Part shown: piece by piece, positions 25,901 through 52,471 of the stretch
How positions within the stretch are numbered: the first letter of the stretch is position 1
How the letters are laid out: every line of letters begins with the position of its first letter
Origin: Schmidtea nova
Taxonomy: Eukaryota
Direction of reading: 5' to 3'
Length of the DNA stretch: 64,000 nucleotides
NCBI GenBank assembly: GCA_044892505.1
Contig: CM097882.1
Span: 219,294,001-219,358,000, forward strand
Notes under the pieces: model-generated
What the model was told of the DNA's origin: nothing
The model's database searches: none
The model's input: the letters and a program-made list of their open reading frames with translations, nothing else
Translations under genes and position numbers: made by a program

Positions 25901-26608
25901 AGGATATTATAATTATTAATAATTCCATTTCCAGGTCAAATATAATGAAAATGATTTCGGTTGGTGTATTTTGGTATCAAAATTACAAAGTGGAAAATTC
26001 AAATCAAAGTTTGTCGAATGTATTGTTCCAGTGGCACACGAAAGCATTTTTGCGAAAGAATTATCAATGGCTACTCCATCACCAAAACACGAAATGCGAC
26101 CCGACGGAAATTTATTTGAAATTCAATTGAACAATATTTATGAATTATCATCAGTTGTGATTGATTGTTCTGATATATTGTTGAATTCATTGAGGAAAAA
26201 TGATGAAGCAAGAAAAGAGTTTCTGAATAAACGAAATAGTATCATTGCTCGATTTAACGAAATTCTTTTGGTGGATTTGAAAAAAGATCTTAAATGTAAA
26301 CCCGATAAAATCAATGAATTTGAACAGGTGAGCTTTATTTATTAAAAAAATAGAAAACAGATTTATTTATTGTTATATTGAATAATAATATAATATTATA
26401 ATAACTTTTTGATATTAATTATTTATAAAAATTAATTATTTTTTATTGTAATTTATAATAATAATAATTAATAATATAATGATAATAATTAAAAGTATAA
26501 TAATAATTATAAAAAAATAATAATAATAACAATTATAATAATACATAACACAGCAGACATGGCAATAAAATAATTAAAAACAAACGCCAATACAAATATA
26601 TATTTTGC

Positions 26609-26703
<95 letters not shown>

Positions 26704-28452
26704 GGCGTTTGTTTTTAATTATAATAATAATAAAAATCATAGTAAAAATTATTTAAAAAAATTATAATAAAAATTATAATAAAAATTATTAAAAAAATTA
26801 TAATAAAAATTATTAAAGAAATTATAGTAAAAATGATAATAAAAATTATTAAAAAAATATAAAAAAAATTAATAAAAAAAATTATAATAAAAATTATAAT
26901 AAAAATTATTAAAAAAAATATAGTAAAAATGATAATAAAAATTATTAAAAAAAATATAATAAAAATTATAGTAAAATTATTAAAAAAATTATTAAAAAAA
27001 TTATAATAAAAATTATTAAAGAAATTATAGTAAAAATGATAATAAAAAATATTAAAAAAATATAAAAAAAATATAAAAAAAATTATAAAAAAAATTATAA
27101 TAAAAATTATAATAAAAATTATTAAAAAAAATATAGTAAAAATGATAAAAAAAATTATTAAAAAAAATTATAATAAAAATTATTACAAAAATTATAATAA
27201 AAATTATTAAAAAAATATAGTAAAAATGATAATAAAAATTATTTAAAAAAATATAATAAAAATTATAGTAAANNNNNNNNNNNNNNNNNNNNNNNNNNNN
27301 NNNNNNNNNNNNNNNNNNNNNNNNNNNNNNNNNNNNNNNNNNNNNNNNNNNNNNNNNNNNNNNNNNNNNNNNNNNNNNNNNNNNNNNNNNNNNNNNNNNN
27401 NNNNNNNNNNNNNNNNNNNNNNNNNNAAAATTATTATAAAAATTATAATAAAAAAATTATAATAATGATTAAAACAGAATAAAAACAAAAGATCTGCTGA
27501 TGCCTGAATAATTGCATTTATTATATTTTTAAAAATGAAATCACGCCAGAATCATATCAAACTGTAAACTAATTGTCAAACTCATTCAGAAAATCAGAGA
27601 AATACAGACCCAAATTGAAAGTCATCCCATGTTTAAGCATGAAAATTCTCTAGAACTGATAAATTTATATCACAAAAGATTAGAAGTGAGAATTATAGAA
27701 ATGGAAAAAAATGTCTTAACACAAATGTCTTTAGTATGAAGGAATTATCGAAAAATTGAGAGCAGAAATCAACAAAAAAGTTTCTCTCATTAAAATGGAC
27801 GAGTTAAAATGCCGAAAAAGAATTCTGAGAAGATTTAAATTCTGCACCGATACCGATGTGATTACGATGAAAGGTAGAATTGCCTGTGAAATCTCCACAG
27901 GCGACGAAATAATGCTTACGGAATTGTTACTCGACGGGGAATTTTCCGCCCTCACTGGAACGCAATTAGTAGCCTTCTTGTCGTGCTTCGTATTTGAGGA
28001 ATTCGTTAAAGAAATAATCGAGCCTCAAAATGATCTCGACAAGAGTCTAGAGAAATTGAAAGAACTCGCGAGACATATTAGTCGTACGAGTAAGGAATGC
28101 CGATTGGATGTATATCCTGCTATTGACGAGAAAGCTTATGTGGAAAGCTTCAAAGTCGGATTGATAGAAATCGTCCGAGCGTGGGCAAAAGGATCGACTT
28201 TCTTAAAATTGTGTGAAAACACAGAAGTCTATGAAGGGAGTATCATCAGATGCATTCGACGGTTAGACGAGTTGTTAGGCCAGCTTTATGAGGCCTCCAG
28301 AGTTATCGGGAATATTCAGTTAGAAAAGAAATTCGGAGAAGGTATGCATTTGTCTGCTTGCTTATCATGTTCTTTACCAATTTATTTCAGCTTCACAATT
28401 GATCAAACGTGGAATCATATTTTCATCTAGTCTTTATTTGAATGACAAATAA
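22967..28452 (+). CDS. MTREX: Exosome RNA helicase MTR4; join(22967..23019,23065..23409,23479..24212,24272..24564,24627..24903,24953..25131,25935..26327,27590..27685,27735..28341,28391..28452), 1012 aa
   Basis: [62 protein letters not shown], arch/KOW (PGRLV..V...DFGW), [27 protein letters not shown] and the C-terminal [13 protein letters not shown]. All introns are GT-AG and the exon sum of 3039 nt stays in frame. Confidence 0.95.
25160..25290 (-). repeat. Fragment of the 7935-8160 / 18090-18303 repeat inside an MTR4 intron
   Basis: tgtaacgttg.ta.tgcaacaaat...gaaactat.att.acc...gggtccaagggc.accga matches 8030-8150. Another fragment lies at ~5980-6105. Confidence 0.6.
26612..27460. repeat. 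(TA)n microsatellite (26612-26697) and AT-only minisatellite (aaaaattataat-type units) in MTR4 intron 7
   Basis: Seen directly; interrupted by an N gap. Confidence 0.9.
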
Positions 28453-29590: not shown

Positions 29591-30481
29591 CACCAAGACG
29601 ACTTCTAATTTCATTGAAATAATTTTGTGATATAGAAAAGCTTTTTTCTGAGTCCGTTGAAGTTGGTTTGCATTGAAAACCACTTAAGAGCATTGAAAAG
29701 CAATTCTACTTGTTTTTTCTTTGTTGCTTTGAATAAATTACATTCTTCTAAATGTGTCAACATTAACAATATCTTGTGATATTTGCAACATCATTATTCA
29801 CATTTGTTATGGTAATCTCACATTCCTCACCATCTACCAAACTTTTTGGTTCTGATTCCATTTGAAAAATCTTTTAATCTTTTGCCAAAATTAAGTATTT
29901 CCGTTTTCGACAAATATGGCAGAGAATGATTGATTTGGTTTTTGCATTTTGATTTTTCAAATATTTCGCCTAAGGTACTAAATTAATATTTCTACGTTCT
30001 TGAACCCTGTTTTTTAATGAATTGAATAAACATTTTTCCTGATTTCCACATTTAGCTGATCAATTTTATTCAATATAAATTTTATTATGGTTTTGGTTGT
30101 AGCGTCTTTTTGTCCCAAAGCTTCCACTGCTACTTGAACGGGTGACAAAGCATCACAAATCTCTTTAAACATTATTTCAGAAATATAGAGCATATATAAT
30201 TTTTGTAAATCATCCATTGTTTTTTTTACACAATCACTGAGTTTTAAAAATCGTTGGATCATAAATAGTAAAGTATTCCAAAGAGTTTTAGAGTCTAAAA
30301 TTAGTTCAATCTCAACATTGAACGTTTGTTTTACATACTGATGTAAAATTGTGTGCGTAAAGGGGAACGCTTGAAAAATGTTTTAACCTTGCGAACAGAA
30401 TTATTACATACTTTGAATGAAATGTCAGAATATTCAACTTCATAATGTTCTTCATTTCCGAGTTCATCAAAATATTGGATA
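29445..30481 (-). pseudogene. hAT transposase relic, C-terminal half
   Basis: MIQRFLKL...LSPVQVAVEALG..DA, and the dimerization domain KPTSTDSEKSFS......IRSRLGEKSKNAL. Confidence 0.8.
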
Positions 30482-31640
30482 TGTTGAGGTTCCAAATATT
30501 TGCTATTTGCAATCTCAACTTGTTATTGGGGTGATTCGTATATAAATATCAAAAACAAAGTTTGCTTCAAAATTTTATTAATACAATAAAATTACTTTTT
30601 ATTCCGTTTACAATTAATAACTCAAATTCTTTATCACACAATTTTTTTAAAAAGAAAAAGTCGTGTCAAATCAATTCTTGTAATTGAACCTATTGGGTGA
30701 CTGCTATGTAGTGCGTGCTATATTTTATTTGTGGATCCAATGTTTCTGATCCGGGTTTTAATAAGTTTTTCAAGATTTCCTTGAAAACTCGATATTGCGC
30801 AGATTTTAATTCTTTAGTTTAAAATTAGATTTTAAAGCTATGCAATTTTTTGGGCGTTTTTTCTGATTTTTCCATCAGCTTATATAGTAAATTTTTATCT
30901 TGTTCGCCAATCATATAATTATATTAAAATATTTATATTTCAATCGGTCTTTTTAACCATCATATAATTATATTTATTAAAATATTTATATTTCAATCGG
31001 TCTTTTTAACCGGATTTTGTTTATTTTATCTGGCTCAATATCTAGAATAATATCTAGAATTTACATCTTGTCGTTTTACAATTTGCCGTTATCTAAAATT
31101 ATTATTTTTTATTAAATAAATATCTAAAATTTACAATTTGCCCTTTTTAATATATTATTATCTAAAATTATTATTTTTTATTAAACAAAAATTTATTATC
31201 TACAATTTGCCCTTTTTAATATATTATTACTTCACATCTCATGCACTGTCATATTTTTATTTATACAGATATATTACCTTATAGATTTTTACACAAATAT
31301 ATATATAAAATTCAAATGATAATATACGGAATATTTATGAAATTCAAGTACAGAATAATTATATACACTTCAAATACAGAATAATGACACTCATATACAA
31401 AATTTAAAAGTATATTAAATAATAAAGTTGTGATCACATAAACATAGTCATATAGTGATTATTTGAGGCTTTGTTGGCTTTGATTGAAGAAGGGTGATTA
31501 TTTGAGGCGATTGAAGATGGAGTCTGCATTATTTTCGGACTGGGTTTCTGCATATATATTAACCCTGTATCGATTAGGCCCTGTCCTGTAATATTTGTTC
31601 AGGGTAAATGCTTGGATGGGCTTCCCTCGATCATCCAACA
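30482..31640 (-). repeat. 3' LTR
   Basis: Direct repeat of 43238-44396 with the same 12756 offset at both ends; contains internal tandem duplications. Confidence 0.97.
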
Positions 31641-33450
31641 TTCCTCCCAGGGCCGTCAAAGTAATGTCCTCATTACCTTTTTCGCTCAGGACCATTTCAA
31701 TTTCTTTATCCTTTAATTTCATTACTGTTCTCTTGAATCCTTTCTTGATTGCAAGATTTAGGGTATCATCTTCCTCAATTCGTCTTCCGAAATGGGTACA
31801 TAATTGTTTTTCCGTTATCTCTTTTTGGTCGGCACCTATAATGAAGCTAGGTTCTTCCTCCTCTTCTATTTCCATTTCAATGTCTGGTTCTGGTCCTAAT
31901 TCGTCTTCTGCTTTTATTTTACTCTCCATTTCTTTTGTGAAGTTTTCTTCGTCGTTTTCCTCAACTGAAAAATACTCTTCGTCCGAATCTAAATCGCATA
32001 TGTCTTCTCTTTCTTTGTATTTTTGTATTAGTTGCGGTTTGTTTTTAATCATTATTTGATTTTCTGGTGGTCCTTCTTCTTTTGTAATCATTAGGTCATC
32101 ATCACTATCTTCATGTATTGTTTCTTCCATATCTGAATTTTCATCCATTATTATACTTTCTTCTTCGCTTTCCTTCAACTCTTCCATACATGATTTTCTG
32201 TTTTGCATCTGGTATAGGTCTCCTTTCATTTCGATATCGTCTGTTATTGGTGTATCACTTTGTAATGATGTTGAAGCTGCTGAATTCCATTTTATTATAG
32301 GTTCCCATTTGTCTTCTACTATTCCATATATTACCTTTAATATTGTTGTTGTCTTTCTGGCAGAAAATGGCTCACTTTCTACTAATGCTTCATTCAGTCT
32401 CTTATCTTTGTACCATCTCTTATGGTATTTAATCACTTGGTAAGCTAAATTGGATAGCTTAATTTTGAGTGGATCCACGTTTTTCACGAATGAGCACATA
32501 AATTTATCTCCGGCCATTTCTCTCATTCCTGCAATGTTGTCTAGACCAAATGTTAGCATTTTTAATTTATCTATCATGTCAAATCCTATGATTATTTTTC
32601 CCCACAACAGCTTTCTGATATCCAATAGCGCCTGGTACTCATCTTCATTTCCGACGATACTTTCTTTATTAATCATTGTTTTTTCTGTGCAGAAGTTTTT
32701 TATCTTCGTTCTTGGGGTTATCTTTTTGTTGTATATAATTTCACCGTTGTACTTTCTTATACATACTTCTACTGGTCGCTTGTTGTCATTTTTATCAATT
32801 GCAAATTTTGCATCCATGAACATAATTAGTTGGTGTCTCTCTTCTGTGGATAATTCATTGTGTGTGAAAGGTATTTTTTCATTTATCCAGCTTTGATTGT
32901 ACCAAGGTTTTGAAGGGATTGGCGGCATTGATTGGAATGGATTTGATATCAGAGGGATATAGAGTATCTCGATTCCTATGACACACGGTAAGTTGTTCAT
33001 TTGGATTATGAGGTGATTAAAATCGTCTGGCATACTTCTGTTGTTTGTAATTGTTTTGATGATGATTGAACAATTACTTGTTGTGATTATTGGTACTTTA
33101 TGTTGGCAAATTGATACCTCGGTTTTTGTCATGTGGAATAGGATTCTATGTGGTATTTTTTTCCCTTTGATTACCGCTTTGTCGACATTAAGATGTTTTT
33201 CAAATGTGCCGATTAGGTCTTTTAGTTTTGTTCGTCGAGCTTCATTAAATTTGATAATGTGTAGTTCTCTTTCTTCAATTTCCACTTTCATATCATTTGG
33301 GATGCATACTTGGTTTGGGAAGCTTCTGATTGTGATTGGATTTCCATCGGTACATATTTTGTTTTGTAGGGTTTTGTAAAAGTTTAGAGGATGTTTGTTG
33401 ATCATAGCCACATAGTTCATAGGTCGAGAATAATTTGGCTCTGATTGCAT
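31498..33450 (-). CDS. ORF3 (650 aa from ATG 33450): degenerate REXO4/ISG20-like DEDDh exonuclease domain, acidic tract, C-terminus encoded in the LTR
   Basis: LIMFMDAKF...EVCIRKYNGEIIYNKKITP..KIKNFCTEKTMI...LL.GKIIIGF..LKML...KLSNLA follows the REX4/ISG20 pattern. The track's extra 50 N-terminal aa come from the 45-bp repeats. Confidence 0.75.
   Translation of the reverse strand: MQSEPNYSRPMNYVAMINKHPLNFYKTLQNKICTDGNPITIRSFPNQVCIPNDMKVEIEERELHIIKFNEARRTKLKDLIGTFEKHLNVDKAVIKGKKIPHRILFHMTKTEVSICQHKVPIITTSNCSIIIKTITNNRSMPDDFNHLIIQMNNLPCVIGIEILYIPLISNPFQSMPPIPSKPWYNQSWINEKIPFTHNELSTEERHQLIMFMDAKFAIDKNDNKRPVEVCIRKYNGEIIYNKKITPRTKIKNFCTEKTMINKESIVGNEDEYQALLDIRKLLWGKIIIGFDMIDKLKMLTFGLDNIAGMREMAGDKFMCSFVKNVDPLKIKLSNLAYQVIKYHKRWYKDKRLNEALVESEPFSARKTTTILKVIYGIVEDKWEPIIKWNSAASTSLQSDTPITDDIEMKGDLYQMQNRKSCMEELKESEEESIIMDENSDMEETIHEDSDDDLMITKEEGPPENQIMIKNKPQLIQKYKEREDICDLDSDEEYFSVEENDEENFTKEMESKIKAEDELGPEPDIEMEIEEEEEPSFIIGADQKEITEKQLCTHFGRRIEEDDTLNLAIKKGFKRTVMKLKDKEIEMVLSEKGNEDITLTALGGMLDDRGKPIQAFTLNKYYRTGPNRYRVNIYAETQSENNADSIFNRLK
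31641..31650 (-). other. Polypurine tract
   Basis: Minus strand reads ...CTGGGAGGAA immediately before the TGTTGG start of the 3' LTR. Confidence 0.6.
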
Positions 33451-33465
33451 TGTTGATTGAAGACA

Positions 33466-33606
33466 CAAGAATCGGGATATTGATTGATAAGTTAGTAAAT
33501 AATAAAACACTAAGAATCGGGATATTGATTGATAAGTTAGTAAACGATAAAACACTAAGAATCGGGATATCGACTGATAAGTTAGTAAACGATAAAACAC
33601 TAAGAA
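33466..33606 (-). promoter_or_regulatory. Three 45-bp tandem repeats carrying branch-point and 3' splice-site motifs
   Basis: Minus-strand unit tgttttatcgttTACTAACttatcaatcaatatcccgaTTCTTAG. TACTAAC at plus 33491, 33536 and 33581; AG at 33510, 33555 and 33600. Confidence 0.6.
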
Positions 33607-33886
33607 TATAGATTGATAATGAGATCGAGATATGATTTTACGACTTGATTTGTGATTGGATTGAAAATTGGAACGATTTGATTGGGAGTTGGTTTGATTG
33701 TTTTGATTGTGCTGAGGATTTGATGTAAAACTGGCTTTATTGGGTTGTTTGTCAAATGGGTGACTTGTTTTTCTAAAAATAAAATGTAAATTTTTATGTT
33801 GAGAGCGTATTTCAGGTTTAACCTTATACGCTATTTTCTAGATACAGATATATGTGATTTTAATATATATTATTGACCAATTTAAC

Positions 33887-36800
33887 TTATACCAATGTGG
33901 ACCTCGAATATTCACCTGGTATATATTTAGCCAAATGGAAATGCCCTGGTACATTTCTGACCAGTTGGCTCCGATACCGCTGCCTTTTCCATTTGTACTT
34001 TTTATAAATTTGTACGCTAGTTATTAAAGCTAAAACTGCTAATGCTATTATTGATGTTGTGATGACATAAAAAGGCCAATGTGGATTTTTATCTTTTTTA
34101 CGAAATGCTTGTAGTTCCTCTAAGTTATGTATCACTATTGGTCTTCCTTGCCTTATTTTGATAGGTTCTTGTTTTTGTTTTTTGGCATTGTATTGTTTTT
34201 GGAGTTTGGCTATTCCAGTGCTTGTTGGTATTTCGTTTGTATGTAGTGTGGTATTTAGTCTATTATTTGATGTCGTTGTTGTGCTTTTTATTCTATCGGG
34301 TGTTATGTTTTGGTTTTTTATTATATCCTTGGGTAATTGTTCTGTTTTTATCTTTTTGCATCTCCATGTTGTTGTATCTGTGTTTCTCTGTATGCAGATT
34401 CTATATATTGTATTAGGTGTTAGTTTTGTGAAATTAATATAGTTTCCTCTTTCGATTTCGTTGGTTGTTCTGTCGTCCTTTCCTTTTATCATCTTTGGGT
34501 TTTTCCCATTCGTTGTTTGCATGTATAAATCAATTACTCCTCTATTTATGATAAATGCTCTAACTTCGTTTGTTGATATTTTTATTAATACTCTGTCAAA
34601 TTCTATTGTTTCGGTTGAGCCAACAATTGTTATGATTGTTAAGAAGATAGCCGATATTATTAGTTTGTTATGAGATCTTAGATTATACTTGTGAGGTTTA
34701 TCTATCGTGACCTCGGCTTCCGCCAACTTGCATCTGTTGACATGTACTACTATTGGATCCTCGTTTTTATGCTTTTGTAAATGTAAATTCTCATTTATTA
34801 CTTTTACTACTTCATATGGACCTTTATATGGTCTTGCTAATTTTGTTGTCTTTCCCTTTCCTACTTGTGGTGACATAAGTCTAACCTTATCACCTACTTT
34901 AAAGTTGTGTGGTTTACTATTTTTGTCGTAGTCGGCTTTGTATTGTTCTTGTCTATATTTGACTTTTAGATTGGCTACTTTATACACTTCTTGCAGTTTT
35001 TCCTGCATTAGTGTGACATAATCTGGTGCATCTAAATATTGTGATACTCGAGGTTCAAATATTGTATCTATTGGTGTTGCTGGCTCTCTTAAAAACATTA
35101 AATAATAATGCGAATATCCTGTTGTTTCGTTTGGAGTGATATTATGAATGTATGTGCATTGACTTATGTATTCGTCCCAATCATTTTGATTTTTTCCTAC
35201 AAAAACAGCTAGTCTGCTTAGTAATGTCCCATTAAATCTTTCTACTAGTCCATCAGTTTGAGGGTGATACGCTGTTGTGTTGATCTTTTGCATGTTAAAA
35301 ATATTAGCTACTCGTTTTATTAATTCACTAGTAAAATTTGTTCCTTTATCTGTTAATAATCTTTTGGGTGTGCCTATCTTGAAAATAATTTTTTCTATAA
35401 GCAATTTAGCAACTGTTTCTGCTGTTTCGTCTTTTGTTGGAAATGCTTCTGCCCATCTAGTAAAATAATCACTAAATACTAGTATATGTTTATTCCCATT
35501 AATTGTAGTAGGTAATTTACATAGAAAATCCATTGCACATAGTTCCATTGGTGATGTTGTTGCTGGAATGGGGTGTAACGGCGCTTTTGTTTTTGTACCT
35601 GTATTTTTTCTTGTTGCACATATTGTACACGCGTTACACCATCTCTTAACATCTTTTTTTAATTCTTCCCAGTAATATTTTTGTAATAATCTACTTGCTG
35701 TCTTTCTAGATGATAAGTGACCTCCTAATGCTCCATCGTGATATTGTAGTAGGAGTATTTGTCTTAATTTCTGAGGTACTACTATTAATTGCTTACCGTT
35801 GAAATCTTCTATTACTACTAATTTCTTTGATATTTTATATTTTGAATTGTTTTCTTTTCTGATTTCATTCCTTATTTTATTGATCTCTGGGTCTTTCATC
35901 TGTTCCTCATTTATATCTATTGGCTTTTCTGCTACTAGTGCAAATATTTCAAGTGCTCCTAATTCTGGTATTCTTGATAGTGCATCTGCGTTTTTATTTA
36001 TTCTACCTGGTTTATATATAATTTTTAGGTGCATGTCTTGTATTTTCATTGCCCATTTAAGTAATCTACTTGATGTATCTTTATGTTTCCATAAGCCTTC
36101 TAATGGTTTATGGTCTGTTCTTATTATCACTTCAGTTCCGTAGATGTATGGTTTGAATTGTTTTAGGGCAAATACTATTGCGTAACATTCTTTTTCTATT
36201 GTTGAATACCTCAGCTGTGCTCCTTTTAATGTTTTACTGGCATATGCTATTACGTAATCTTTCCCTTTCTCTTCTTCTTGGCCTAATACTGCTCCTACGG
36301 CTTTCCCGCTGGCATCCGTCATTACTATAAATTGTTTTTCGAAATTTGGGTATCTTAACACTGGTGCTGTTATCAATCTTTCTTTTAGTTTGTCGAATGC
36401 TTCTTGATGTTCTTTTGTCCATTTCTTTTGTATCTTGTTAACTTTATTGTTAATTTCTTGTACTATTAACACGTCTTTGCATTTTCCTTTTGTTTTAATT
36501 CCCTTTGTTAGTTCTATTATAGGTGTTGCTATCTTTGCATAATCTTGTATGAATTTACGATAGTATCCTGTTAAACCTAAAAACCCTTGTACTTGTTGTA
36601 CTGTTTTTGGTATTGGAAATTTCTTTACAACTTCTATTTTTTCTGGATTTGGTTTTATCCCTTCTACTGTGACTATATGCCCTAAAAATAGTGCCGAAGA
36701 CTCTGCCCATTTACATTTGGTTGGTTTAATTTTTATCCTTGCTTTTCTTAGTCTCTCAAGTACGTTTGTTATATCTTTTAGATGTTCCTCGAATGTCTTT

Positions 36801-39800
36801 GATGATATTAATATGTCATCCATGTAAACTGCGCAGTGTTGTACATTTACTAATATTGTGTTCATTAGACGTTGAAATGTGGCTGGCGCATTAGTTAATC
36901 CGAAGGGTAATCGTGTGTACTCATATAAACCATCTTCAATAACAAATGCTGTTTTCTCTGCATCCCCTTCTTCCATTTGAATTTGCATATACCCCTTATT
37001 CGCATCAATGACTGAAAAATACTTAGCATCCCTAAGTTTATCATATTGCTCTTGTGCTTTTGGGAATGGATATGAGTCTTTTACTGTTACATCATTTAAT
37101 TTACGATAGTCAATGCACATTCTTATTTCTCCATCTTTCTTTTTGACGGGTACAATGGGTGATGCCCATTGTGAAAAACTTTGTTTTATTACACCTGCGT
37201 CTTTTAATTCTTTAATTTGTCGCTTTATCTCTTCTCTTAGTTTATATGGTACGCTATATGGTCTTTGTTTTATTGGTCTTGCATTGCCCGTATCTATTAC
37301 ATGTTTGATTATGTCAGTATCTCCTAAATCAAATTCATGTTTTGCAAAAACATCGCTGTTATCATCTATTAGTGTCTGTAATTGTGCTTGTTGTGTTATT
37401 GTTAGGTATTTATTATTGATTTTCACTTTGTCGTATGATTTTATACTATTTGTCTTACTAGGTTCGACCACTCTTTTGCCGTTATCATTTATCACACTTG
37501 TCTCGCTGACTTCATACGTTTTCTCTAATTTGCCTTTGAATAGTTTTCCCAATTTTGTGCCTTTGTGTATTTTTATATTACTTTTTTCATAATTCGCTAT
37601 TCTTAATGGGATTATTCCCTTTTTTGGAATTACGCATTCATTAGTTAACATTATATTTTGTGTAATTGCCGTTTCTGGCTCGAAAATAAAAGTGTCCTCA
37701 CTTTTGACGTTAACTTTTATGGGGATTATATGATCACACTCATATTCTAATTCGAATGCTTCTAATGCAACAACTTCCGTGAACTTGGACTTATGTTTGA
37801 TAGCTTTTCTTTTAATCGTGTTATCCGTTAAGTCTATGATGCAGTTATTCAGCTTGTTGAGTATATCGATCCCTAGTATACATATGCTATTGCATTCTTG
37901 TACTACTTTAAATATGTGGTGTATTACTTGTTCTGATGTTTCAACTACTAATTCAATATCTCCTTTTAGTGGAATGTAGTGTGCTGATAGTGTTACTACT
38001 TTATCCGTTGTTTTCATAATATTTCTCTTTTGACCATCTGTAAGTTGATCTTCCCTAATCAGGGACGTTGCTGCTCCAGTATCTACTAGTGCATTTATGA
38101 TTATATTGTTTATAATTATTTTAAGTCTTGGCCTTGCTTCGTTTGCTGTCTCTAATTGCTCCATCATTTCGACTTCCAAGCTATAACAACCATATATTTT
38201 TTTGGGTTCACAGTAACAATTCTTACTTTCTCTAGGAATTTTAATCTCTATATTTTCTTGTAACTCTTTTAATTGTTCTCTTTGGTTTTCGTATAGTCCT
38301 TGTTGTGGTGCATTTCCTTCATGTGATATCTGCGTTTTAACTATTTCCTCATTGTTTTCATCATCTATCAATATTTGCCTTTCTTCATTCCTTTGGATTT
38401 TTATTAAACGTATTTCTTTATCATGTTTTGCCGTAATCAGGTATTTGGCTACAAACGGGCATAAACATGCTAGTAATTTATATGAATTTCCGAATACTTG
38501 TTTCAGCTGTCGTAGTGATACTAAAGAAGAACAAACCATTTTTAGTAAAGCAACCGTATAGTAAATTCCCAAAATTGTAGAGAACATGTTTCCAAGGACT
38601 GCAAAATATCCCCATATACTATATAATACTTTATATGCTACTTTTTTGAAATATTCTTTTGATAACAACACGTCAAAATTGTAATTTCCTCCGTAACTTC
38701 CTTCGATAACTTTGTTTACCATTATTGACAGTATTCTTTCTTTTTCGTTTGGGAATAACATGTGTTTTCTTGCACTTTCTATAGCTTCTCTCGTATATAT
38801 GCCATTGCTATCCATATCGTTGATTTCTTTAAACTCCAATCTTTTTTCAAGCTCTATGAGTTCTAATTTGAGTGGTTTCATCGCCTCTTTCCTATCTGAC
38901 ATAGATATCCACATTTCGTCATTTATTTTGTATAATGGATCTAATAAATTAGTGCATTTTTCTATTTTTCTTGGTACATATGTTTTTTCTGTTAGTATTC
39001 TAGTAATTGGTTGAAGGTATACCCTTTCTCCTTTGTATATTACTGGTAACTCATTTGTGCACTGATTGTTTGTTGCCAATGATACACTAACAGGTTTGCA
39101 TTGAAATGTCTGTATCACTTCTCCTACTATCCTGGCAAATGTTCCTTCTTCTGAGAAGATTATTGGTGCCATCAAATCTGGGTTTGTTACCACGACTGCC
39201 ATTTTTGTCCTTAATATTTCTCTGTTGAGTTTGCAATCGCTCATGATTGTTGATTGATATACTTTATCTAATTGCACTAGTTGATTATGATAGAAAAAAT
39301 CTATTTTATTGTTGAAATATGATGCGAGTTTGACGTCGAATTTATTTACTTTTTGTTTTGCATCTTTGACTTCTTCTCTACTTATGTATATTCCTTCATA
39401 ATTAGTTTGTATTATTTCCTTACCACATTTTACACTTTTCCTTTTTCTAACGAACCTCATTGCTTCGTTTTCAGATTCTGACATATATATTGTTGGTGTA
39501 TCTTTTTCTTGTACAATTGTTGTTTTTCTTTTTTGATCTCTCACTCTTTTTGAGTCTACATCTGTGAACTGTTTCCCTTTGATTTCTCTAAATTTTAATG
39601 ATTTTAATTTTGTTAATTGGCAATCGTATTTATCTATTTTATATATTAGCATTGATTCTCCTGTATCGCAATATGATTCTTCTAATGTACAAAATTTGTA
39701 TATCATCATTTTCTTTGAGCTGCTGTCAAATGATGCCTTGAATTTTCTTAGTTCTACCATGTAGTGCCTTCTTACTACAACATTACTGAGTTTTTCACCC

Positions 39801-41695
39801 CATACGGTATACTCTCCTCCTTCACAATAACCCCCTTTTGATGTCCATCCCACAATATTTACGTCCTGTCTCATCTTTGCTCCTATTCTTGCTTCTAGCT
39901 CGATTCCTTTGTGACCGCTATATTTAGCTTTCTTTGTTTTAAATGCCTCTTCACACTCCATTGGTGATAATATTACTGCTTCTGGTGTCCATGTGGGTTT
40001 TAAAACTGTTCTTGCCCCAGCATGGCATATATATGCTTCCTCCTGATACTTTATGATGCACTCTTTAGCTTCCGTATGAATAAAATCTGATTCTTGATAA
40101 ACATGAAACATTTGAGGCTCTGACATGATTAATTTAGTTGGATTTGCTTCTGGGCAATTTTCGACATCCAACAATGAATATTTTTGTCCCCATTTTGGCT
40201 TTTGACAATCATATGCTATTATTGCATTGCTACCCTTAATTAAATCTAATAATAATGTTATTATTACTATTACTGTGGAGGTTATCGATTTGTTTTCTGT
40301 TTTCTGTTTTATTGTTGTTTTCTCTATTAATTGTTTTATTACTTTATCTGTATCACTTTCTTTGTTTGTCGTATCCTCATCATATAATATTTTCCATCCT
40401 CCTTTCATTTTTATCCATGGTATTGCTTCTACCTTCAATTTTTTATACATCATCGTTACCACGTTGTCTAATTGTCCTTTTGGATTTTCCTTTATAATTT
40501 TTTTGTATCTTGCAGCCAAGTATGCCATGGCCGTTATTATTCTATCTTTATCTATCCCTGTATTAAACAGGATCTTTAATACTGTTTTTTCATCTGCTTC
40601 TTCTGTGGCTAGTCTTTTGGTATCTTTTTTAATTAGTTTCATTTTTTCTGTTATGTTTTCTATGAGTACCGTTGGTCTTGTTTCTGGAAATAGCTTAATA
40701 TCCATGACTTTTATTATTTCTTTTATTTTATTTATGTCGTTGTTGTCATCTTGGTATTCTAGTGTTTCATGTCTTTGTTTGTTTGCGATTTCTTTTAATC
40801 GTTCCGCTGTTTTTCTATTGTCCGATTTTTCTATTATTTCTGATTTTCGAGGTCTTCCTCTACCTCGTTTTGATGTTTCTGCATCTTTTGTTTTTGCTTC
40901 GTCAGCTATTCTTTCTATTGTTTCTTGTAGGTTACTATATTTTTCATCTATAGGTTTAAATATAATTTCTTCATCCCTTGCTGATTTCTTTGTTTCGCTA
41001 GGTGATTTATCCCATAGCCTAAATAATCTATCAAAATCGTTTTCTTCATTTATACTCAGTTCAACCGACGGTACTGGCGTCACTATCTCATCGACCATTC
41101 GTTTTTCTATTGTGGCTACCACAATATTATCACTTACTGGGTTTATCCCATAATCGATTAAATACTCGTCACTCAATAATTCTATTCCGTTAAAATATAA
41201 TTTTATTACATCTTTCTCTCCTATGGTTCCTGGCCATTTGGCTCTTACCGTTCGTTTTAATTTGCTCACTTTAGTGCAGGGATGTACCCTTTGTTTGTTT
41301 CTGGAAAAGTAGTTATCGTTTGATTCAATCGTTACATTTAGTGTTTCATGCAGTCTTTCATTTTTTCTTATATATTCTCCATAACATTTTAACATCTCTT
41401 TTATTTCTATTTCTAATTCAAATATTTTCGTTATATTTTGCCTCTTTACCATCATTGGTATCAAATTTCTAAGCTTATCTAATTCAATCCCATTAACTTG
41501 TATTTTATTGATTATTCTCAGTGTTTCGTTATCATCAAATGGTTGTTTATACAATATCTCTTTAAATTCTTCTATCAATTCTTTTTGTTTATTTTCTTCT
41601 GTGAGAAATATTTCATCTGCTTCTCTAATTTCTTTTAACTCATCATTATCGATATCTACTTCATTTGTAAAAGTACTAAATTCATTTATAGACAT
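33887..41695 (-). CDS. pol: 2602-aa polyprotein: UBL, AT-hook, Bcl-2-like, signal, chuvirus-like glycoprotein, TM, aspartic protease, RT, RNase H, integrase, signal, FN3-like, TM
   Basis: LVDTGA (D at 38083), YMDD (36815-36826), TDASG...TDHKPL, H-H-C-C zinc finger, DDE core, GPY module. Accessory domains are detailed in the findings. Confidence 0.95.
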   Translation of the reverse strand: MSINEFSTFTNEVDIDNDELKEIREADEIFLTEENKQKELIEEFKEILYKQPFDDNETLRIINKIQVNGIELDKLRNLIPMMVKRQNITKIFELEIEIKEMLKCYGEYIRKNERLHETLNVTIESNDNYFSRNKQRVHPCTKVSKLKRTVRAKWPGTIGEKDVIKLYFNGIELLSDEYLIDYGINPVSDNIVVATIEKRMVDEIVTPVPSVELSINEENDFDRLFRLWDKSPSETKKSARDEEIIFKPIDEKYSNLQETIERIADEAKTKDAETSKRGRGRPRKSEIIEKSDNRKTAERLKEIANKQRHETLEYQDDNNDINKIKEIIKVMDIKLFPETRPTVLIENITEKMKLIKKDTKRLATEEADEKTVLKILFNTGIDKDRIITAMAYLAARYKKIIKENPKGQLDNVVTMMYKKLKVEAIPWIKMKGGWKILYDEDTTNKESDTDKVIKQLIEKTTIKQKTENKSITSTVIVIITLLLDLIKGSNAIIAYDCQKPKWGQKYSLLDVENCPEANPTKLIMSEPQMFHVYQESDFIHTEAKECIIKYQEEAYICHAGARTVLKPTWTPEAVILSPMECEEAFKTKKAKYSGHKGIELEARIGAKMRQDVNIVGWTSKGGYCEGGEYTVWGEKLSNVVVRRHYMVELRKFKASFDSSSKKMMIYKFCTLEESYCDTGESMLIYKIDKYDCQLTKLKSLKFREIKGKQFTDVDSKRVRDQKRKTTIVQEKDTPTIYMSESENEAMRFVRKRKSVKCGKEIIQTNYEGIYISREEVKDAKQKVNKFDVKLASYFNNKIDFFYHNQLVQLDKVYQSTIMSDCKLNREILRTKMAVVVTNPDLMAPIIFSEEGTFARIVGEVIQTFQCKPVSVSLATNNQCTNELPVIYKGERVYLQPITRILTEKTYVPRKIEKCTNLLDPLYKINDEMWISMSDRKEAMKPLKLELIELEKRLEFKEINDMDSNGIYTREAIESARKHMLFPNEKERILSIMVNKVIEGSYGGNYNFDVLLSKEYFKKVAYKVLYSIWGYFAVLGNMFSTILGIYYTVALLKMVCSSLVSLRQLKQVFGNSYKLLACLCPFVAKYLITAKHDKEIRLIKIQRNEERQILIDDENNEEIVKTQISHEGNAPQQGLYENQREQLKELQENIEIKIPRESKNCYCEPKKIYGCYSLEVEMMEQLETANEARPRLKIIINNIIINALVDTGAATSLIREDQLTDGQKRNIMKTTDKVVTLSAHYIPLKGDIELVVETSEQVIHHIFKVVQECNSICILGIDILNKLNNCIIDLTDNTIKRKAIKHKSKFTEVVALEAFELEYECDHIIPIKVNVKSEDTFIFEPETAITQNIMLTNECVIPKKGIIPLRIANYEKSNIKIHKGTKLGKLFKGKLEKTYEVSETSVINDNGKRVVEPSKTNSIKSYDKVKINNKYLTITQQAQLQTLIDDNSDVFAKHEFDLGDTDIIKHVIDTGNARPIKQRPYSVPYKLREEIKRQIKELKDAGVIKQSFSQWASPIVPVKKKDGEIRMCIDYRKLNDVTVKDSYPFPKAQEQYDKLRDAKYFSVIDANKGYMQIQMEEGDAEKTAFVIEDGLYEYTRLPFGLTNAPATFQRLMNTILVNVQHCAVYMDDILISSKTFEEHLKDITNVLERLRKARIKIKPTKCKWAESSALFLGHIVTVEGIKPNPEKIEVVKKFPIPKTVQQVQGFLGLTGYYRKFIQDYAKIATPIIELTKGIKTKGKCKDVLIVQEINNKVNKIQKKWTKEHQEAFDKLKERLITAPVLRYPNFEKQFIVMTDASGKAVGAVLGQEEEKGKDYVIAYASKTLKGAQLRYSTIEKECYAIVFALKQFKPYIYGTEVIIRTDHKPLEGLWKHKDTSSRLLKWAMKIQDMHLKIIYKPGRINKNADALSRIPELGALEIFALVAEKPIDINEEQMKDPEINKIRNEIRKENNSKYKISKKLVVIEDFNGKQLIVVPQKLRQILLLQYHDGALGGHLSSRKTASRLLQKYYWEELKKDVKRWCNACTICATRKNTGTKTKAPLHPIPATTSPMELCAMDFLCKLPTTINGNKHILVFSDYFTRWAEAFPTKDETAETVAKLLIEKIIFKIGTPKRLLTDKGTNFTSELIKRVANIFNMQKINTTAYHPQTDGLVERFNGTLLSRLAVFVGKNQNDWDEYISQCTYIHNITPNETTGYSHYYLMFLREPATPIDTIFEPRVSQYLDAPDYVTLMQEKLQEVYKVANLKVKYRQEQYKADYDKNSKPHNFKVGDKVRLMSPQVGKGKTTKLARPYKGPYEVVKVINENLHLQKHKNEDPIVVHVNRCKLAEAEVTIDKPHKYNLRSHNKLIISAIFLTIITIVGSTETIEFDRVLIKISTNEVRAFIINRGVIDLYMQTTNGKNPKMIKGKDDRTTNEIERGNYINFTKLTPNTIYRICIQRNTDTTTWRCKKIKTEQLPKDIIKNQNITPDRIKSTTTTSNNRLNTTLHTNEIPTSTGIAKLQKQYNAKKQKQEPIKIRQGRPIVIHNLEELQAFRKKDKNPHWPFYVITTSIIALAVLALITSVQIYKKYKWKRQRYRSQLVRNVPGHFHLAKYIPGEYSRSTLV

Positions 41696-42988
41696 TTAAA
41701 GCTTTCTCTCAATAAGTCTTCCATATTGCGTTTTAAATTCTTTTAATTCTTCTCTTAATATGTTTATTTCTTTATTTGCTGATTCAAGCTCAGCGCTATT
41801 TACCTGCTTTATCTCAGGCTCATTTTTAAATCTTACTCTTATCGGTGAATCTGCTCGTGGTTTATTACATACCTTTGCTAGGTGACCATACTTTTGGCAA
41901 TTGTAACACTTTATTTGTCCATTAAAATTCACTTTATCCCTACCCTCATTATTATAAGTATTTCGCCTCACTGGGCTATCTTGTCTATTTCTCGAATTAT
42001 CTCTATATCTATTATCTCTTCTATTATATTCGAAGCGACTATCTCTATTATTTCTATTATATCCACTGTAACTGTTATAACCAGAACGATTATCTCTAAA
42101 ATTATCTCTGTTGTCTTTATCATTATTTCTGTCAAAACGATTGTCTCTAAAACTATCTCTATTATTATTCCCTTTATAGTTATCTTTAAAATTATCTCTA
42201 TTTCTATTATCAAAATTTTTATTTCCTGAACTGTTAAACTTTCCCTTGTTTTCAGGTGATTGGCTTCTATTAGGACTAAATTTTCTTCTATTATTAACAA
42301 AATTCAAATATAATTGTTTCATTTCTTCCCAAGGGATACTATCATCTTTATTTTTCAACTCAGGTTTTACCTCAAGTTGCTTTTCAATTTCTACAGCGTC
42401 TATCTCTGGTCTAAATCGATCTCTTTGTATTGCTTCGATACGTTTTGCTTTTTGTACTAATTCATTTAAGTCTTCATATTCAATCGTAATTAATGCTTTG
42501 TATAAATATTTTTGGATTCCGTTCCAAAACTGATCCTCGATTAACCTACTAGTGTGATCTCCTGCACCAAATGCCTTTTTTGCTAATTCTGTTATCGTGT
42601 ATATATATTCACCTACTGATTCTCTTGCTCCTTGGTATCTACTTCTAAATTTTTGAACATTTATTTTTTGTAAGTCTCTATCTATTACTATTTCTTTTCT
42701 AAGGTTTGTAACTAACTCTTGATAATTAATGCCTTTACATGCTAAATTATTGTATGCTTGTAATGCATATCCTTTTAAATATAATGGAATTCGTTGTTTT
42801 AATTCATTTGTTTTCCATCCGCAAGCCTCTGCATATTGTGCGATTTCGGCAAAAAAGTCGTCGAACTTTTCAGGGTCTCCTTTATATGATTCTATTGGTA
42901 GTGTTTTTATAAAATTATGATTACTGTTGATGTTGTCTGTATTGCTGTTACTTCAACTATTATTGCTGCCTGTACTATTATTACTCAT
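41696..42988 (-). pseudogene. gag: gag (430 codons) with an in-frame TGA at codon 12
   Basis: ATG 42988 MSNNSTGSNNS*SNSN... followed by an open capsid-like region (YKGDPEKFDDFF...W...RYQGARESVGEY), an RD/N-rich tract and a zinc knuckle CYNCQKYGHLAKVC. Confidence 0.88.
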
Positions 42989-43217
42989 TTTGTATATTAC
43001 CTTATTTCTTAACTTGTGTAATATTTCAGATGGCTTATCTATAATAACTTTCTTTATCTTTTTACCTATTTTGTTATTGTTAACCTTATATGTTTGTATA
43101 TTTTCGAATTTCTGTTTTGGTCAATAATATTTATATAAATATATTTTCCCGATATATATTACAATATCCCTCTGATCGAAATTCCTATCCCCCAATTGAT
43201 ATTATGATATTTTATTG

Positions 43218-43235
43218 TCCCGGTTCGCGGCACCA
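43218..43235 (-). other. Primer-binding site, most similar to tRNA-His
   Basis: TGGTGCCGCGAACCGGGA, 2 nt after the 5' LTR. The TGGTGCCG start matches His-tRNA 3' ends; the tRNA identity is inference. Confidence 0.8.
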
Positions 43236-43237
43236 AA

Positions 43238-44396
43238 TGTTGAGGTTCCAAATATTTGCTATTTGCAATCTCAACTTGTTATTGGGGTGATTCGTATATA
43301 AATATCAAAAACAAAGTTTGCTTCAAAATTTTATTAATACAATAAAATTACTTTTTATTCCGTTTACAATTAATAACTCAAATTCTTTATCACACAATTT
43401 TTTTAAAAAGAAAAAGTCGTGTCAAATCAATTCTTGTAATTGAACCTATTGGGTGACTGCTATGTAGTGCGTGCTATATTTTATTTGTGGATCCAATGTT
43501 TCTGATCCGGGTTTTAATAAGTTTTTCAAGATTTCCTTGAAAACTCGATATTGCGCAGATTTTAATTCTTTAGTTTAAAATTAGATTTTAAAGCTATGCA
43601 ATTTTTTGGGCGTTTTTTCTGATTTTTCCATCAGCTTATATAGTAAATTTTTATCTTGTTCGCCAATCATATAATTATATTAAAATATTTATATTTCAAT
43701 CGGTCTTTTTAACCATCATATAATTATATTTATTAAAATATTTATATTTCAATCGGTCTTTTTAACCGGATTTTGTTTATTTTATCTGGCTCAATATCTA
43801 GAATAATATCTAGAATTTACATCTTGTCGTTTTACAATTTGCCGTTATCTAAAATTATTATTTTTTATTAAATAAATATCTAAAATTTACAATTTGCCCT
43901 TTTTAATATATTATTATCTAAAATTATTATTTTTTATTAAACAAAAATTTATTATCTACAATTTGCCCTTTTTAATATATTATTACTTCACATCTCATGC
44001 ACTGTCATATTTTTATTTATACAGATATATTACCTTATAGATTTTTACACAAATATATATATAAAATTCAAATGATAATATACGGAATATTTATGAAATT
44101 CAAGTACAGAATAATTATATACACTTCAAATACAGAATAATGACACTCATATACAAAATTTAAAAGTATATTAAATAATAAAGTTGTGATCACATAAACA
44201 TAGTCATATAGTGATTATTTGAGGCTTTGTTGGCTTTGATTGAAGAAGGGTGATTATTTGAGGCGATTGAAGATGGAGTCTGCATTATTTTCGGACTGGG
44301 TTTCTGCATATATATTAACCCTGTATCGATTAGGCCCTGTCCTGTAATATTTGTTCAGGGTAAATGCTTGGATGGGCTTCCCTCGATCATCCAACA
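43238..44396 (-). repeat. 5' LTR
   Basis: Direct repeat of 30482-31640; no difference found by eye. Confidence 0.97.
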
Positions 44397-45000
44397 GATA
44401 TCACAATCAGATTCATTGAATTCGTTTGTTTCTATTCTTGCTTCACTATTCGAGAAATGTCTGTAAAGCCAAGATGTACTCATGGTTCATATATAGGATA
44501 ATTTCATCTTCCGATTCTTTTCCAAATTTAATATTTACTGATGCTCCGTCACATGTGACCACAATATCAATCAATTAGTTCCCTCGTTATTTATGAAACA
44601 CAACTTCAGTGTATGTGAATTAAACGCAAATTTATAAATTCTAAATCGGAATTATAAAGGTTCAGGAATCTTCTGTCCGTAAGCTTGTCCACTCATCAAA
44701 AGTTGATGATAATTTTTTGAATTATTTTGATTTGATTTTTGCCTTAAGTTTATTTTTAATTATGGATCTGGGTCATTTATTGATTCACGAATAAAGATGG
44801 ATCTAGTAATTTGTCTTATCGACTAACCATCTAGAGCAGCTAATCTGGATATGATTTCTTCAAAGCTTGTTCGTGGCACAAACTGCAACAAATTAGATTG
44901 AAGACAGTTTTTTTTGAAGTTTTGGCTTTTGGCCCTACATTGACAGTCTCTTTTAATAAATTGTCGATTTTTTTAAATGTTTTTTTTAGATTTTTAGATG
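44397..45000 (-). pseudogene. hAT transposase relic, N-terminal half (split from 29445-30481 by the Gypsy insertion)
   Basis: Minus strand reads SFEEIISRLAALDG, FINLRLIHIH and IVVTCDGASVNIKFG, matching the TDGAS motif of this hAT group. Confidence 0.7.
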
Positions 45001-45581: not shown

Positions 45582-46887
45582 AGATAGATATACCTGAAAG
45601 TCAGTTTGACATAGTCATAACTTACCTAGTGTAAATTTGCATCTTGTAAAGCTCATTAAAAGAATAAAAGATAATTTATGTCTTGGGTTTTCTATCATTA
45701 TTAAACTGTGTTCGGTTGATCATCCCGGTAATGTGTGAAAGTGCTAAAATCATTAAGGGCACTTCCCGACGGTCTCCGGAAACGACGGGTGAAATTTTGC
45801 CTCTCGACGCAACGCCTTATGGGTGTTGGCCGGTGCGGCGTACGAGCGCATATATCATGGTGAAAGGGAGAAGGGTTTGCACATAGTGACCATTTAGAGA
45901 GTAAAACTTTAGTGTCCACAGGAGGTAAAACATCTATTAACAAGCTTTATTACTATGACCATACAAGTAAAATATACACTCGCAGTTCGAGGTTGCAGGA
46001 ATATATATGTCATCACATGCAGGGGTAACATGGTCTTGACGATTTCGACAGGGCATGAGACAATTTGAGAGAATAGATACCACCAGATTTTGACCCGTAA
46101 CAACAACGCATGCACAGCACGAATAGACGATGTAGTGAAATTAGAGTACTCATAGATTCACATAGAATGTTTGCACTGAAATGTTGAATGAATGATGATT
46201 GCTAGTGAATGATGGATGACGATGCTCCACTATTGTTTCGTCTATAGGAATTTGATATGAGTTGAGTGTTTAGTTCCACGAATGATGAGTGATAGTGTAG
46301 TGCAATGGATCTGGTGAATAAAGTAATTCACCACCAGTGTGAAACGATGCATTGTAGATTTGAATTTGATCCAGCATACAAAAGTAATTAAGGAAAATCA
46401 ACGACTATAAATCCGATTGATCGATAGAACAATAGACAGGTGAAAATTTAGAAATAATAATGGTTTCCTAACATGAATAGCGATGAGATAATTTTCTGAG
46501 TTAACCAGCAAGGGAATAACAGCTGTTGAATGCAATTCAATCTTACAGGTGACACTATAAAAATTAAATCAATAGACCGAATGGTGTAATTAACCAGAGT
46601 ATGAATGAATGATTTAGGAAAATTATCGACTACAGTGGGGTGAGGTTGATGCATGAAATGACTGAGTGAAATAATATAGGGGTGTTGCAGTATGACGTAT
46701 TGGACAAGAGAAGTCGATTGAAGTAAAATGAAGTGATGATGACCGGAATGGGGACGGGACATATCCAAACCCGATGTTGATAATCGCGCAACTAAATACC
46801 ATAATCTATTTATATCTAGCGATATTCATGGGGAATCCGTCAAAGCTAATGCGGACTAAAACAACTAAATCTCATCGAAAGAGTAAA

Positions 46888-48570
46888 ATGGTCAGCGCAT
46901 TGACTCAATCGGTTAAAGAAATTCCAGCCGATGTTCTGATGAAAATGACTCGACACATGCGTCACTGGCGGCGCGAGTTCCAACCATCTGAAGAGACCGA
47001 CCTATGGGGTCGTAATAAAGTAGAAATCCGATGGGAAGGTGACCCATCCTGGCCTAGATAGTGAGAAAAAGACAATGTCAGGAACCAACCTTGGTTCATA
47101 AAGCTAGGTGATAAAATTGGCATTCCGAGGTGGTTGCTTCATTTCCATCCGATAGCGACACAACAGTTACAGAATATTACTAGATAAGCCTCGCAATATG
47201 CGTACTGGGGATGAAATCCAATATCCAAACCTACCCGGGGGATTCCAAGAGGAATGGAGTTCGCGATCCCCTTGGGCAACCTCAATTCGATTCCAAGAAA
47301 TCTTTCTTTCTTCTACCACGATAATGGATTGCGCCGAGAAGACACCGATTTCTCCCAATATTGGACGAATATGGTAACCGTGGAAGAAAAATGAGAAAAT
47401 CAAGCTTGAACTATCATCAAATTTGTGTTTGGATGTTGTGATTCAATAAATGTATGATACCACTGTGTTTGGGTTAATTGAGTTTGTTGTGGGGTTGACT
47501 GAAAGTATGTTTGAATAAATAATTAAGGGGATAGTAGATACAACATGGGAGAAATCCATGAAGAGTAGACTAGACCGGGCGGGCCAAATAGTCGCGCATT
47601 TTTTCAGACCCTACTTTTATGTGCTTTCCTAATAGAACAACTCACAATGAAAGACTACCATAAGCGAGTCAACTTGGACGACGACGGACAGTTGAAAAAA
47701 CGAATTCGATTACTTAAGAGCACAATTCATCGTCAGGTGAATGAGATCGAGAGGATAAAAAAACTTGGTTTAGTCCGGAACGCACCAAGGAAATATTAAA
47801 GTCTAAAGACCGTGCCGTACGGGCAGTAGATAATCAGACGAGAGAACTAGCCACCACAAAATTGGAGATGAATAGATGTCTAAGAGCTATGACCAGGGAG
47901 TTCATCGAAACTCACTTGAAAGATCAAATACGGACTAACACGTTCGAAAGATGGGTGCCATCACAACTCGTGAGCACGAAAACACAAACCGAAACAATTG
48001 AAGCAACAGTAGCAAGGAGCGATACCGAGGTTACTACGGTGCAGGACTCCATGGTAGGGCGAACAAAGAAGTGAAATCGATTAGGCACGAAAAAGAGGCG
48101 GGAACGCAGAGCATTCGCCAATCAACTAGGCATTGAGATAGATCTGTTAAATGGTCTCTCAGAAAGGCAGTTGGTAAAAGATAATAAATACAAATGTTTT
48201 TTTCGGATAAATATATGTATTGTATTAAAATAATTTGTTTTCGAGTATGCGTGGAAAGTATGATGAAATAACTTGTGATGACTAAATAACTGGATAAGGA
48301 TAATCGTAGATAAAAGGGACCAAAAGAAAGCCACAAAAGTCTTCTATCGACAGTGGTGGACCCGTAGCTTTAATAGGGGAATAGTGGTCACCTAGATTGC
48401 TCACCTGCCTTATTAAACTACAACGCTTGGTGCAGTACCAACATGATGCACAAATAGGGGCAAGTCATGGGCATCAGCGGGGAGATATCTTTTTATCTAG
48501 GTGGGATTACCCTAATGTTAAGATAAAAAAGAATCCCGTGTATGACATCGTACCAACAAACCAGCAATAT
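46888..48570 (+). pseudogene. Second, decayed copy of the ORF A - ORF B - conserved block cassette
   Basis: Same order and strand as 38-1830. ORF B part reads TWFSPERTKEIL...EMNRCLRAMTREFI...TNTFERWV...STKTQT...NRLGTKKRRERRAFANQLGIEIDLLNGLSE. Confidence 0.85.
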
Positions 48571-52272: not shown

Positions 52273-52471
52273 ACTATAGATCAAAATTTTTTTTTTTATA
52301 AACAATAACACAATATTTCGGCACAGCCTTTATCAAGTGTGTATTTCTATCGTTATATTTACTTAATCCTAAAAGGATTAAGTAAATATAACGATAGAAA
52401 TACACACTTGATAAAGGCTGTGCCGAAATATTGTGTTATTGTTTATAAAAAAAAAAATTTTGATCTATAGT
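52273..52471. mobile_element. Perfect palindrome (98-bp arms, 3-nt spacer), foldback MITE family
   Basis: actatagatcaaaa...acttaatcct-aaa-aggattaagt...ttttgatctatagt. A related copy lies at 55509-55639. Confidence 0.75.

Follow-up and report, generated by a model that had tools for sequence, protein, structure and literature searches.

A predicted class III env within the polyprotein of a high-copy Ty3/gypsy element in Schmidtea nova

The element and the identity of its env

Analysis of the window, a 64,000-nucleotide stretch of Schmidtea nova DNA, points to a recently inserted Ty3/gypsy element whose env, predicted to have a class III fold and placed between Gag and protease, probably lets particles enter other cells. 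The element occupies positions 30482-44396 (13,915 bp) on the minus strand. Its env is an in-frame part between gag and protease and not a separate gene. The principal features of the element are as follows.

44397..44400, other copy at 30478-30481, no strand: target-site duplication GATA, from the sequence
43238..44396, minus strand: 5' LTR, 1,159 bp, TG...CA, 0 mismatches and 0 gaps against the 3' LTR
43218..43235, minus strand: primer-binding site, 18 nt, complementary to the 3' end of host tRNA-Phe(GAA) plus CCA
41699..42988, minus strand: gag with one CCHC zinc knuckle (zf-CCHC E 2e-4; Retrotrans_gag weak, E 0.02)
38426..40222, minus strand: env, predicted class III (gB/chuvirus-type) fusion protein with ectodomain, membrane helix and cytosolic tail (profile, AlphaFold model, Foldseek)
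near 38531-38587, minus strand: env membrane helix, with the cytosolic tail beyond it
37847..38140, minus strand: aspartic protease (PR), DTGA (PF00077 E 1e-6)
36671..37147, minus strand: reverse transcriptase (RT), YMDD (PF00078 E 7e-36)
36035..36421, minus strand: RNase H (PF17917/PF17919 E about 1e-37)
35261..35779, minus strand: integrase (IN) zinc finger and core (PF17921 E 1e-18, PF00665 E 1e-9)
30482..31640, minus strand: 3' LTR, identical to the 5' LTR

The PR-RT-RNase H-IN order, the TG...CA LTRs, the tRNA primer site and the short target duplication are those of Ty3/gypsy elements (Metaviridae), in agreement with the carrier named in the first-pass annotation, which was also right in supposing a non-arthropod host. 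The LTR match of 1,160 bp includes one flanking base common by chance. A 4-bp target duplication was present in all three other copies with both ends read; the copy-end test passes only copies followed by T, and no target preference is claimed. The whole element was covered as contigs by two sequencing runs of unspecified kind from one study, which are silent on expression; no RNA run was among those listed as containing the element.

The env stretch is a 599-codon open frame on the minus strand, running exactly from 40222 to 38426, the span given in the first-pass annotation. Env accounts for residues 492-1090 of a longer frame of 2,602 aa (33887-41695), in which PR, RT, RNase H and integrase follow. 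The glycoprotein motif pattern described in the first-pass annotation was borne out, apart from small slips. The listed motifs are in frame, starting at 40222 (IIAYDC), 40180 (YSLLDVENC), 39832 (GYCEG), 39100 (CKPVSV), 39055 (NELPV), 38803 (GIYT) and 38614 (WGYFAVLG), and YLQPITR is present in the translation; the slips are that no cysteine stands just before GEV and that CKPVSV is flanked by gaps of 5 and 7 residues where 4 and 5 had been given. A Pfam search matched env to PF24664 (Monjiviricetes_fusion) with an E value of 6e-89 and 299 bits against a cut-off of 27, over model positions 4-648 of 653, a match well outside what chance would give; the same family was found in none of 14 control genomes. 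The cysteines had been described as intact, and each of the 14 in the ectodomain occupies an alignment column that is conserved in 90-100% of 106 relatives.

An AlphaFold monomer of env, computed from the alignment of 106 sequences, reached pLDDT 88.9 and pTM 0.67 and has a long central helix at residues 299-346. Foldseek against the PDB returned herpesvirus gB in every match listed (best E 4e-15, TM about 0.40), and against viral models the best matches were G proteins of chu-like and related negative-strand viruses (TM up to 0.65, 16-21% identity). The env fold as modelled is class III, since the AlphaFold model matches herpesvirus gB and chuviral G. Together with PF24664 this predicted fold bears out the earlier assignment to a chuvirus-type class III fusion protein; the profile and structure searches that had been proposed as its check retrieved PF24664, herpesvirus gB and chu-like G. 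The sequence trace to gB is weak (E 0.013; identity 9-12%), chu-like G is 16-21% identical, and a single-sequence PDB search with env gave no match. Unlike gB and chuviral G, with which it has the predicted fold in common, the env analysed here is encoded within a polyprotein.

Most relatives have a C-G-x-H/W pattern at the first likely fusion loop, and the env of the window departs from it: its loop reads CHAGART and lacks both the C-G seen in 84 of 100 relatives and the Trp that the two sister families described below have at this loop. A scan of the env stretch found no N-X-S/T sequon and no R-x-K/R-R site; an ectodomain free of N-glycan sites occurs in two of 104 alignment rows.

Relatives, copies and selection

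Two sister families were identified in the same genome. Their envs are 36-38% identical to that of the window family, and ubiquitin-like (Ubl), Bcl-2, env, pol and nuclease ORF follow in the same order in frames of about 3,390-3,400 aa (nine of ten fetched loci in the expected orientation). A HMMER library search revealed 1,154 env relatives, the best of which are polyproteins with env before protease; env followed by protease was seen in 12 of the 16 top polyprotein relatives scanned. Stand-alone relatives are 22-28% identical over their full length and embedded ones 26-41%.

A quick maximum-likelihood env tree was built from 16 embedded rows (four from the own genome and 12 from the library; P0009 and P0019, in which a protease was not seen, are classed as embedded by rank and upstream domains) and 35 stand-alone hits, 34 of them random. 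All 16 embedded envs lie on one side of a branch against the 35 stand-alone envs (SH-aLRT 100), which argues for old inheritance and not new capture, and this clustering was equalled in 0 of 500 shuffles. The tree is midpoint-rooted, with no named chuvirus among its rows, and gives no direction of transfer between viruses and elements. The starred pairs agree between RT and env trees of 10 rows. The first-pass annotation had envisaged an independent env acquisition; these sequences do not support a fresh capture by this element, whose env clusters with the other polyprotein-embedded envs and apart from the stand-alone relatives.

One library protein, P0104, has env after integrase with DUF5641 upstream and falls among the stand-alone envs. 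Another, P0011, is a gypsy env-pol polyprotein of the embedded clade that NCBI lists as a hypothetical protein from a Flavobacteriaceae MAG, and is likely animal DNA in a metagenome bin. P0006, P0007, P0008, P0010 and P0016 have two or three protease-like stretches after env.

The family is present in many copies, in the hundreds. From 3,821 first-look candidates in the 1.25-Gb own genome, 73 copies were scored; all are 96-100% identical, 67 are open across env and 26 lie in stop-free frames of 3,054-3,082 aa. The primer-site 15-mer occurs 3,028 times in the genome, and 2,587 occurrences fit a longer tRNA pattern, leaving up to about 440. These 2,587 genome-wide matches are to the 3' pattern of tRNA-Phe, the primer tRNA of the element family, and from 566,906,064 of G000:C1 (L120) tRNA-Phe(GAA) genes are repeated in tandem every 240 bp, forming a very large array.

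Comparison with three diverged copies revealed strong purifying selection on env, with dN/dS of 0.035-0.037 at dS 0.38-0.40, as tight as for RT/IN. The corresponding values are 0.13-0.15 for the Bcl-2-like part, 0.16-0.22 for Ubl and 0.40-0.72, from few changes, for a protein encoded after integrase, so that dN/dS lends weak support to a function of the latter. The selection measured is that on the element family and not on the window locus.

Across the family, a single frame runs through gag and env-pol. The window copy is interrupted by three in-frame stops, all outside env.

42953-42955, minus strand: in-frame stop at gag codon 12 of the window copy
41696-41698, minus strand: in-frame stop directly after gag, private to the window copy
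33838-33840, minus strand: in-frame stop in the accessory ORF, at a site open in six of seven other copies and not readable in one

Among 28 copies with the same preceding 24-mer, the stop at 41696-41698 occurs in one, which is the window copy. With two stops before env and one in the accessory ORF, the window copy cannot make the polyprotein, and its copying likely relied on proteins from sister copies. Compared with two close copies, 27 of its 3,014 codons carry private changes (14 silent, 11 missense and two stops). By our estimate about 4-7 LTR differences would be expected had the private changes arisen after insertion, and none was seen, which suggests that the copy was already damaged when it inserted and depended on sister copies for its proteins; LTR identity could alternatively come from gene conversion. 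Along the element, the degree of identity to other copies shifts abruptly, a mosaic that suggests recombination between subfamilies or co-packaged genomes. In 700-bp steps, window 31000-43000 was observed to be 86-99% identical to L023/L024 and 75-98% to L035/L036, and in the same comparison the accessory ORF is swapped in one subfamily.

Proteins and domains accompanying env

Analysis of the regions flanking env revealed the following additional features.

41096..41407, minus strand: ubiquitin/SUMO-like (Ubl) domain (PF11976 E 0.002, PF00240 E 0.04, below the Pfam cut-off)
40844..40882, minus strand: RGRGRPRK stretch, from the sequence
40361..40693, minus strand: Bcl-2-like domain, BH1/BH2 part (PF00452 E 5e-6, below the Pfam cut-off)
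40217..40273, minus strand: hydrophobic helix (hydropathy 2.08)
33890..34660, minus strand: second membrane protein, predicted from hydropathy, in frame downstream of integrase
31498..33954, minus strand: accessory ORF, a separate 3' ORF with an acidic tail and its end inside the 3' LTR
33467-33607, minus strand: three 45-nt repeats in the accessory ORF, from the sequence
32296-32898, minus strand: ISG20/ISG20L2-like DEDDh exonuclease domain (ISG20 E 0.006 alone; ISG20L2 E 9e-12 with a three-sequence profile)

The Ubl-like stretch has a similar counterpart in the sister families, in which two ubiquitin-like repeats apparently precede the Bcl-2-like domain (L071:5602-7329, L073:5466-7175), compared with one in the window. 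The RGRGRPRK stretch is presumably AT-hook-like. A five-sequence profile of the Bcl-2-like domain matched 94 PDB sequences at E<=0.01 (best 6e-5), and the 60 of them that were listed are all Bcl-2/Bcl-xL. The hydrophobic helix between this domain and env likely has two roles, anchoring the Bcl-2-like part at its tail and acting as an internal signal for env.

The post-integrase protein consists of a signal-like helix (34604-34660), a small ectodomain, a Thr-rich stalk, a membrane helix (34013-34069) and a tail ending in S-T-L-V. Its plan recurs in the sister families, where the protein ends in T-F-V in four of five copies read, and in library proteins P0006 and P0011. An FN3-like label for the ectodomain is a lead only: ESM Atlas gave 0.87 (line at 0.9) with FN3 as all ten best family matches, a Pfam search gave no FN3 match, and a PDB profile search was not significant for FN3 (E at least 0.09), with 7 of its 15 rows being receptors known for FN3 domains. 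A single-sequence fold of this protein failed (pLDDT 44).

At the catalytic columns of the exonuclease (D-x-E, D, H, D), the window family keeps only the first Asp, and the two sister families keep D-A-E and H...D. Judged by these residues, the ISG20-like nuclease is catalytically degenerate in the window family and retains its residues in the two sister families. The literature searched does not describe a post-integrase membrane protein in gypsy elements or an ISG20-like ORF with live and dead versions; Grohme et al. 2018, Sacco et al. 2022 and Repbase lay beyond the scope of that search and may describe either of them. The second membrane protein and the apparent live/dead ISG20-like pair in sister families of one genome would thus be small additions not found described.

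Proposed mechanism and comparison with known systems

In the reading that we favour, entry of particles into other cells, the family would produce one polyprotein of about 3,030 aa in the order Gag-Ubl-Bcl-2-Env-PR-RT-RH-IN-tail. Four hydrophobic helices would thread it through the ER, with Gag/Ubl/Bcl-2 and the enzymes on the cytosol side and the Env and tail ectodomains on the lumen side. Signal peptidase would cleave near IIAYDC to release the N-terminus of Env, and the cytosolic parts would be cut by the protease that the element encodes. Because the enzymes would hang on the Env tail and Gag would end in a membrane anchor, all parts could gather at one membrane and bud together. Env trimers would fuse the particle with the target membrane without a furin cut, and the Bcl-2-like part would protect the producing cell from death. 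The topology and the cleavage are drawn from hydropathy, and the scheme as a whole also from domain order and established knowledge of class III fusogens. Since a Gag:Env:Pol output of 1:1:1 would be wasteful, splicing or another control may exist.

The same Env might instead act within the cell or between touching cells, through ER/vesicle budding or local cell-cell fusion and not in free particles, and we give this a minor but real share of probability. The atypical first fusion loop and the absence of an N-glycan site in the window family, both of which count against entry by free particles, and the forced equal amounts of Gag, Env and enzymes fit such a role, and strong selection shows use and not place of use; free particles are favoured by the complete ectodomain with its 14 conserved cysteines, by the long central helix and by the strong resemblance to the glycoproteins that free viruses use for entry. 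If this gypsy lineage had recently and independently acquired a chuvirus glycoprotein, this would account for chu-like G proteins being the best structural matches among viruses and for the Pfam family common to both, yet such a capture is very improbable in view of the low identity to stand-alone relatives, the position of the embedded envs on one branch side, the agreement of RT and env trees and the closeness to a published planarian family (below); section 10 of PMC13524379 also argues for an ancient origin. Even less credit can be given to a domesticated, syncytin-like host fusogen or an inert endogenous viral fragment. The window copy does combine a broken gag with an open env, but the identical LTRs, target duplication, primer site and hundreds of copies are those of an element, env has no start or promoter of its own, and the measured selection concerns the family and not this locus.

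A further reading, which we consider unlikely, is a two-protein entry machine derived from one polyprotein, in which a gB-like fusogen would be joined by a host-derived FN3-like partner for attachment or targeting, a Bcl-2 mimic and a dead ISG20-like decoy. The post-integrase partner would end in a PDZ-type S/T-x-V tail, and the ISG20-like nuclease would have been turned into a dead RNA-binding decoy in this lineage. If true, a 14-kb invertebrate retrotransposon would divide the labour of entry in the manner of a herpesvirus.

The capture of env and the gag-env-pol layout are already published, and the element is a new member of a known family. It was earlier stated that errantiviruses use F-type env; this is contradicted by Chary and Hayashi (eLife 2026, PMC13524379), whose chuvirus-like BEL/Pao baits recovered gB-type env in many gypsy elements and who give GAG-ENV-POL order for Platyhelminthes, Nematoda and Bryozoa. 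The window element has the features of these GAG-ENV-POL gB-type errantiviruses, namely a gypsy pol, env before pol and near-identical copies. Its counterpart in that study is Platyhelminthes_Rhabditophora_Smed_errantivirus_3, which has gB-type env, gag-env-pol order and a span of about 14.5 kb, similar in size to the element here. By hand count, 175 of 246 residues of its env domain I-II are identical to the window env (71%), and the table of PMC13524379 places the other five Smed families at 31-38% identity to Smed_3, figures that by themselves point to a planarian host. The loops of Smed_1 and Smed_2 (CGKWSHT, CGKWSHS) are those of the two sister families in our genome. Smed_errantivirus_3 differs in its host genome and in having three copies listed, compared with far more here. 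The consulted part of PMC13524379 lists no tRNA type, whereas the window family is primed by tRNA-Phe, and a word search of its main text returned no Bcl, ubiquitin, exonuclease, fibronectin or polyprotein.

The giant planarian gypsy Burro/GYPSM1 has Gag, a Ubi2/SUMO-like part, BCL-2, env and then PR in one frame (Arkhipova and Yushenova 2019, PMC6431247). This layout is as in the window element, the Burro env has mononegavirus fusion-protein matches, and both carry accessory ORFs. Burro is, however, >30 kb with 4,873 aa, against 13.9 kb and about 3,030 aa here. The window element gave no Pfam match to MATH, BIR, RING or ankyrin at E<=0.1, and its single zinc knuckle is a further difference from Burro. 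A dUTPase-like stretch is described for Burro between PR and RT, where a Pfam search of the window element gave no such match. The Burro section of PMC6431247 names no post-integrase membrane protein or exonuclease. The window element is Burro-like in layout, not Burro in size or cargo.

Anakin elements of mosquitoes (Dezordi et al. 2020, PMC7642597; PMC10084718) have the PF24664 glycoprotein family in common with the window element, but they belong to the BEL/Pao superfamily and carry env after integrase, as P0104 does, neither of which applies to the window element. Rotifer Juno/Vesta (Rodriguez et al. 2017, PMC5408684) resembles the window element in an exonuclease-like accessory ORF 3' of pol. 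The Juno/Vesta ORF3 takes the place of env and is of the RNase D-like DEDDy type, its residues intact, whereas the window ORF is ISG20-like DEDDh, stands alongside env and is degenerate.

The family described here is thus compact, high in copy number and recently active, with the Burro layout at under half the size. In PMC13524379, cell-to-cell movement by gB-type env is inferred and not tested in flatworms; a compact high-copy family offers an easier system for asking whether gB-type errantivirus env moves elements between cells.

Observations were also made on the remainder of the window. Related GC-richer stretches at 1-2000 and 46400-48500 (76-84% identical over short pieces) gave no Pfam match and are likely another repeat family. 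Long hairpin-like inverted repeats occupy 3601-3877 (138 nt at 85%) and 52273-52471 (98 nt at 100%), in part next to runs of N, and an AT-rich satellite with a 12-bp unit is present at 26600-27200. A second gypsy pol at 61531-63698 (minus strand), frameshifted and with RT, RNase H and integrase pieces, runs off the window. Host sequences on the plus strand include a C2-domain exon at 4281-5135, a TM2-domain gene at 19477-20127 and, at 23024-28430, exons of a Ski2/Mtr4-type RNA helicase (DEAD, DSHCT E 6e-48) that end about 2 kb from the 3' LTR of the element.
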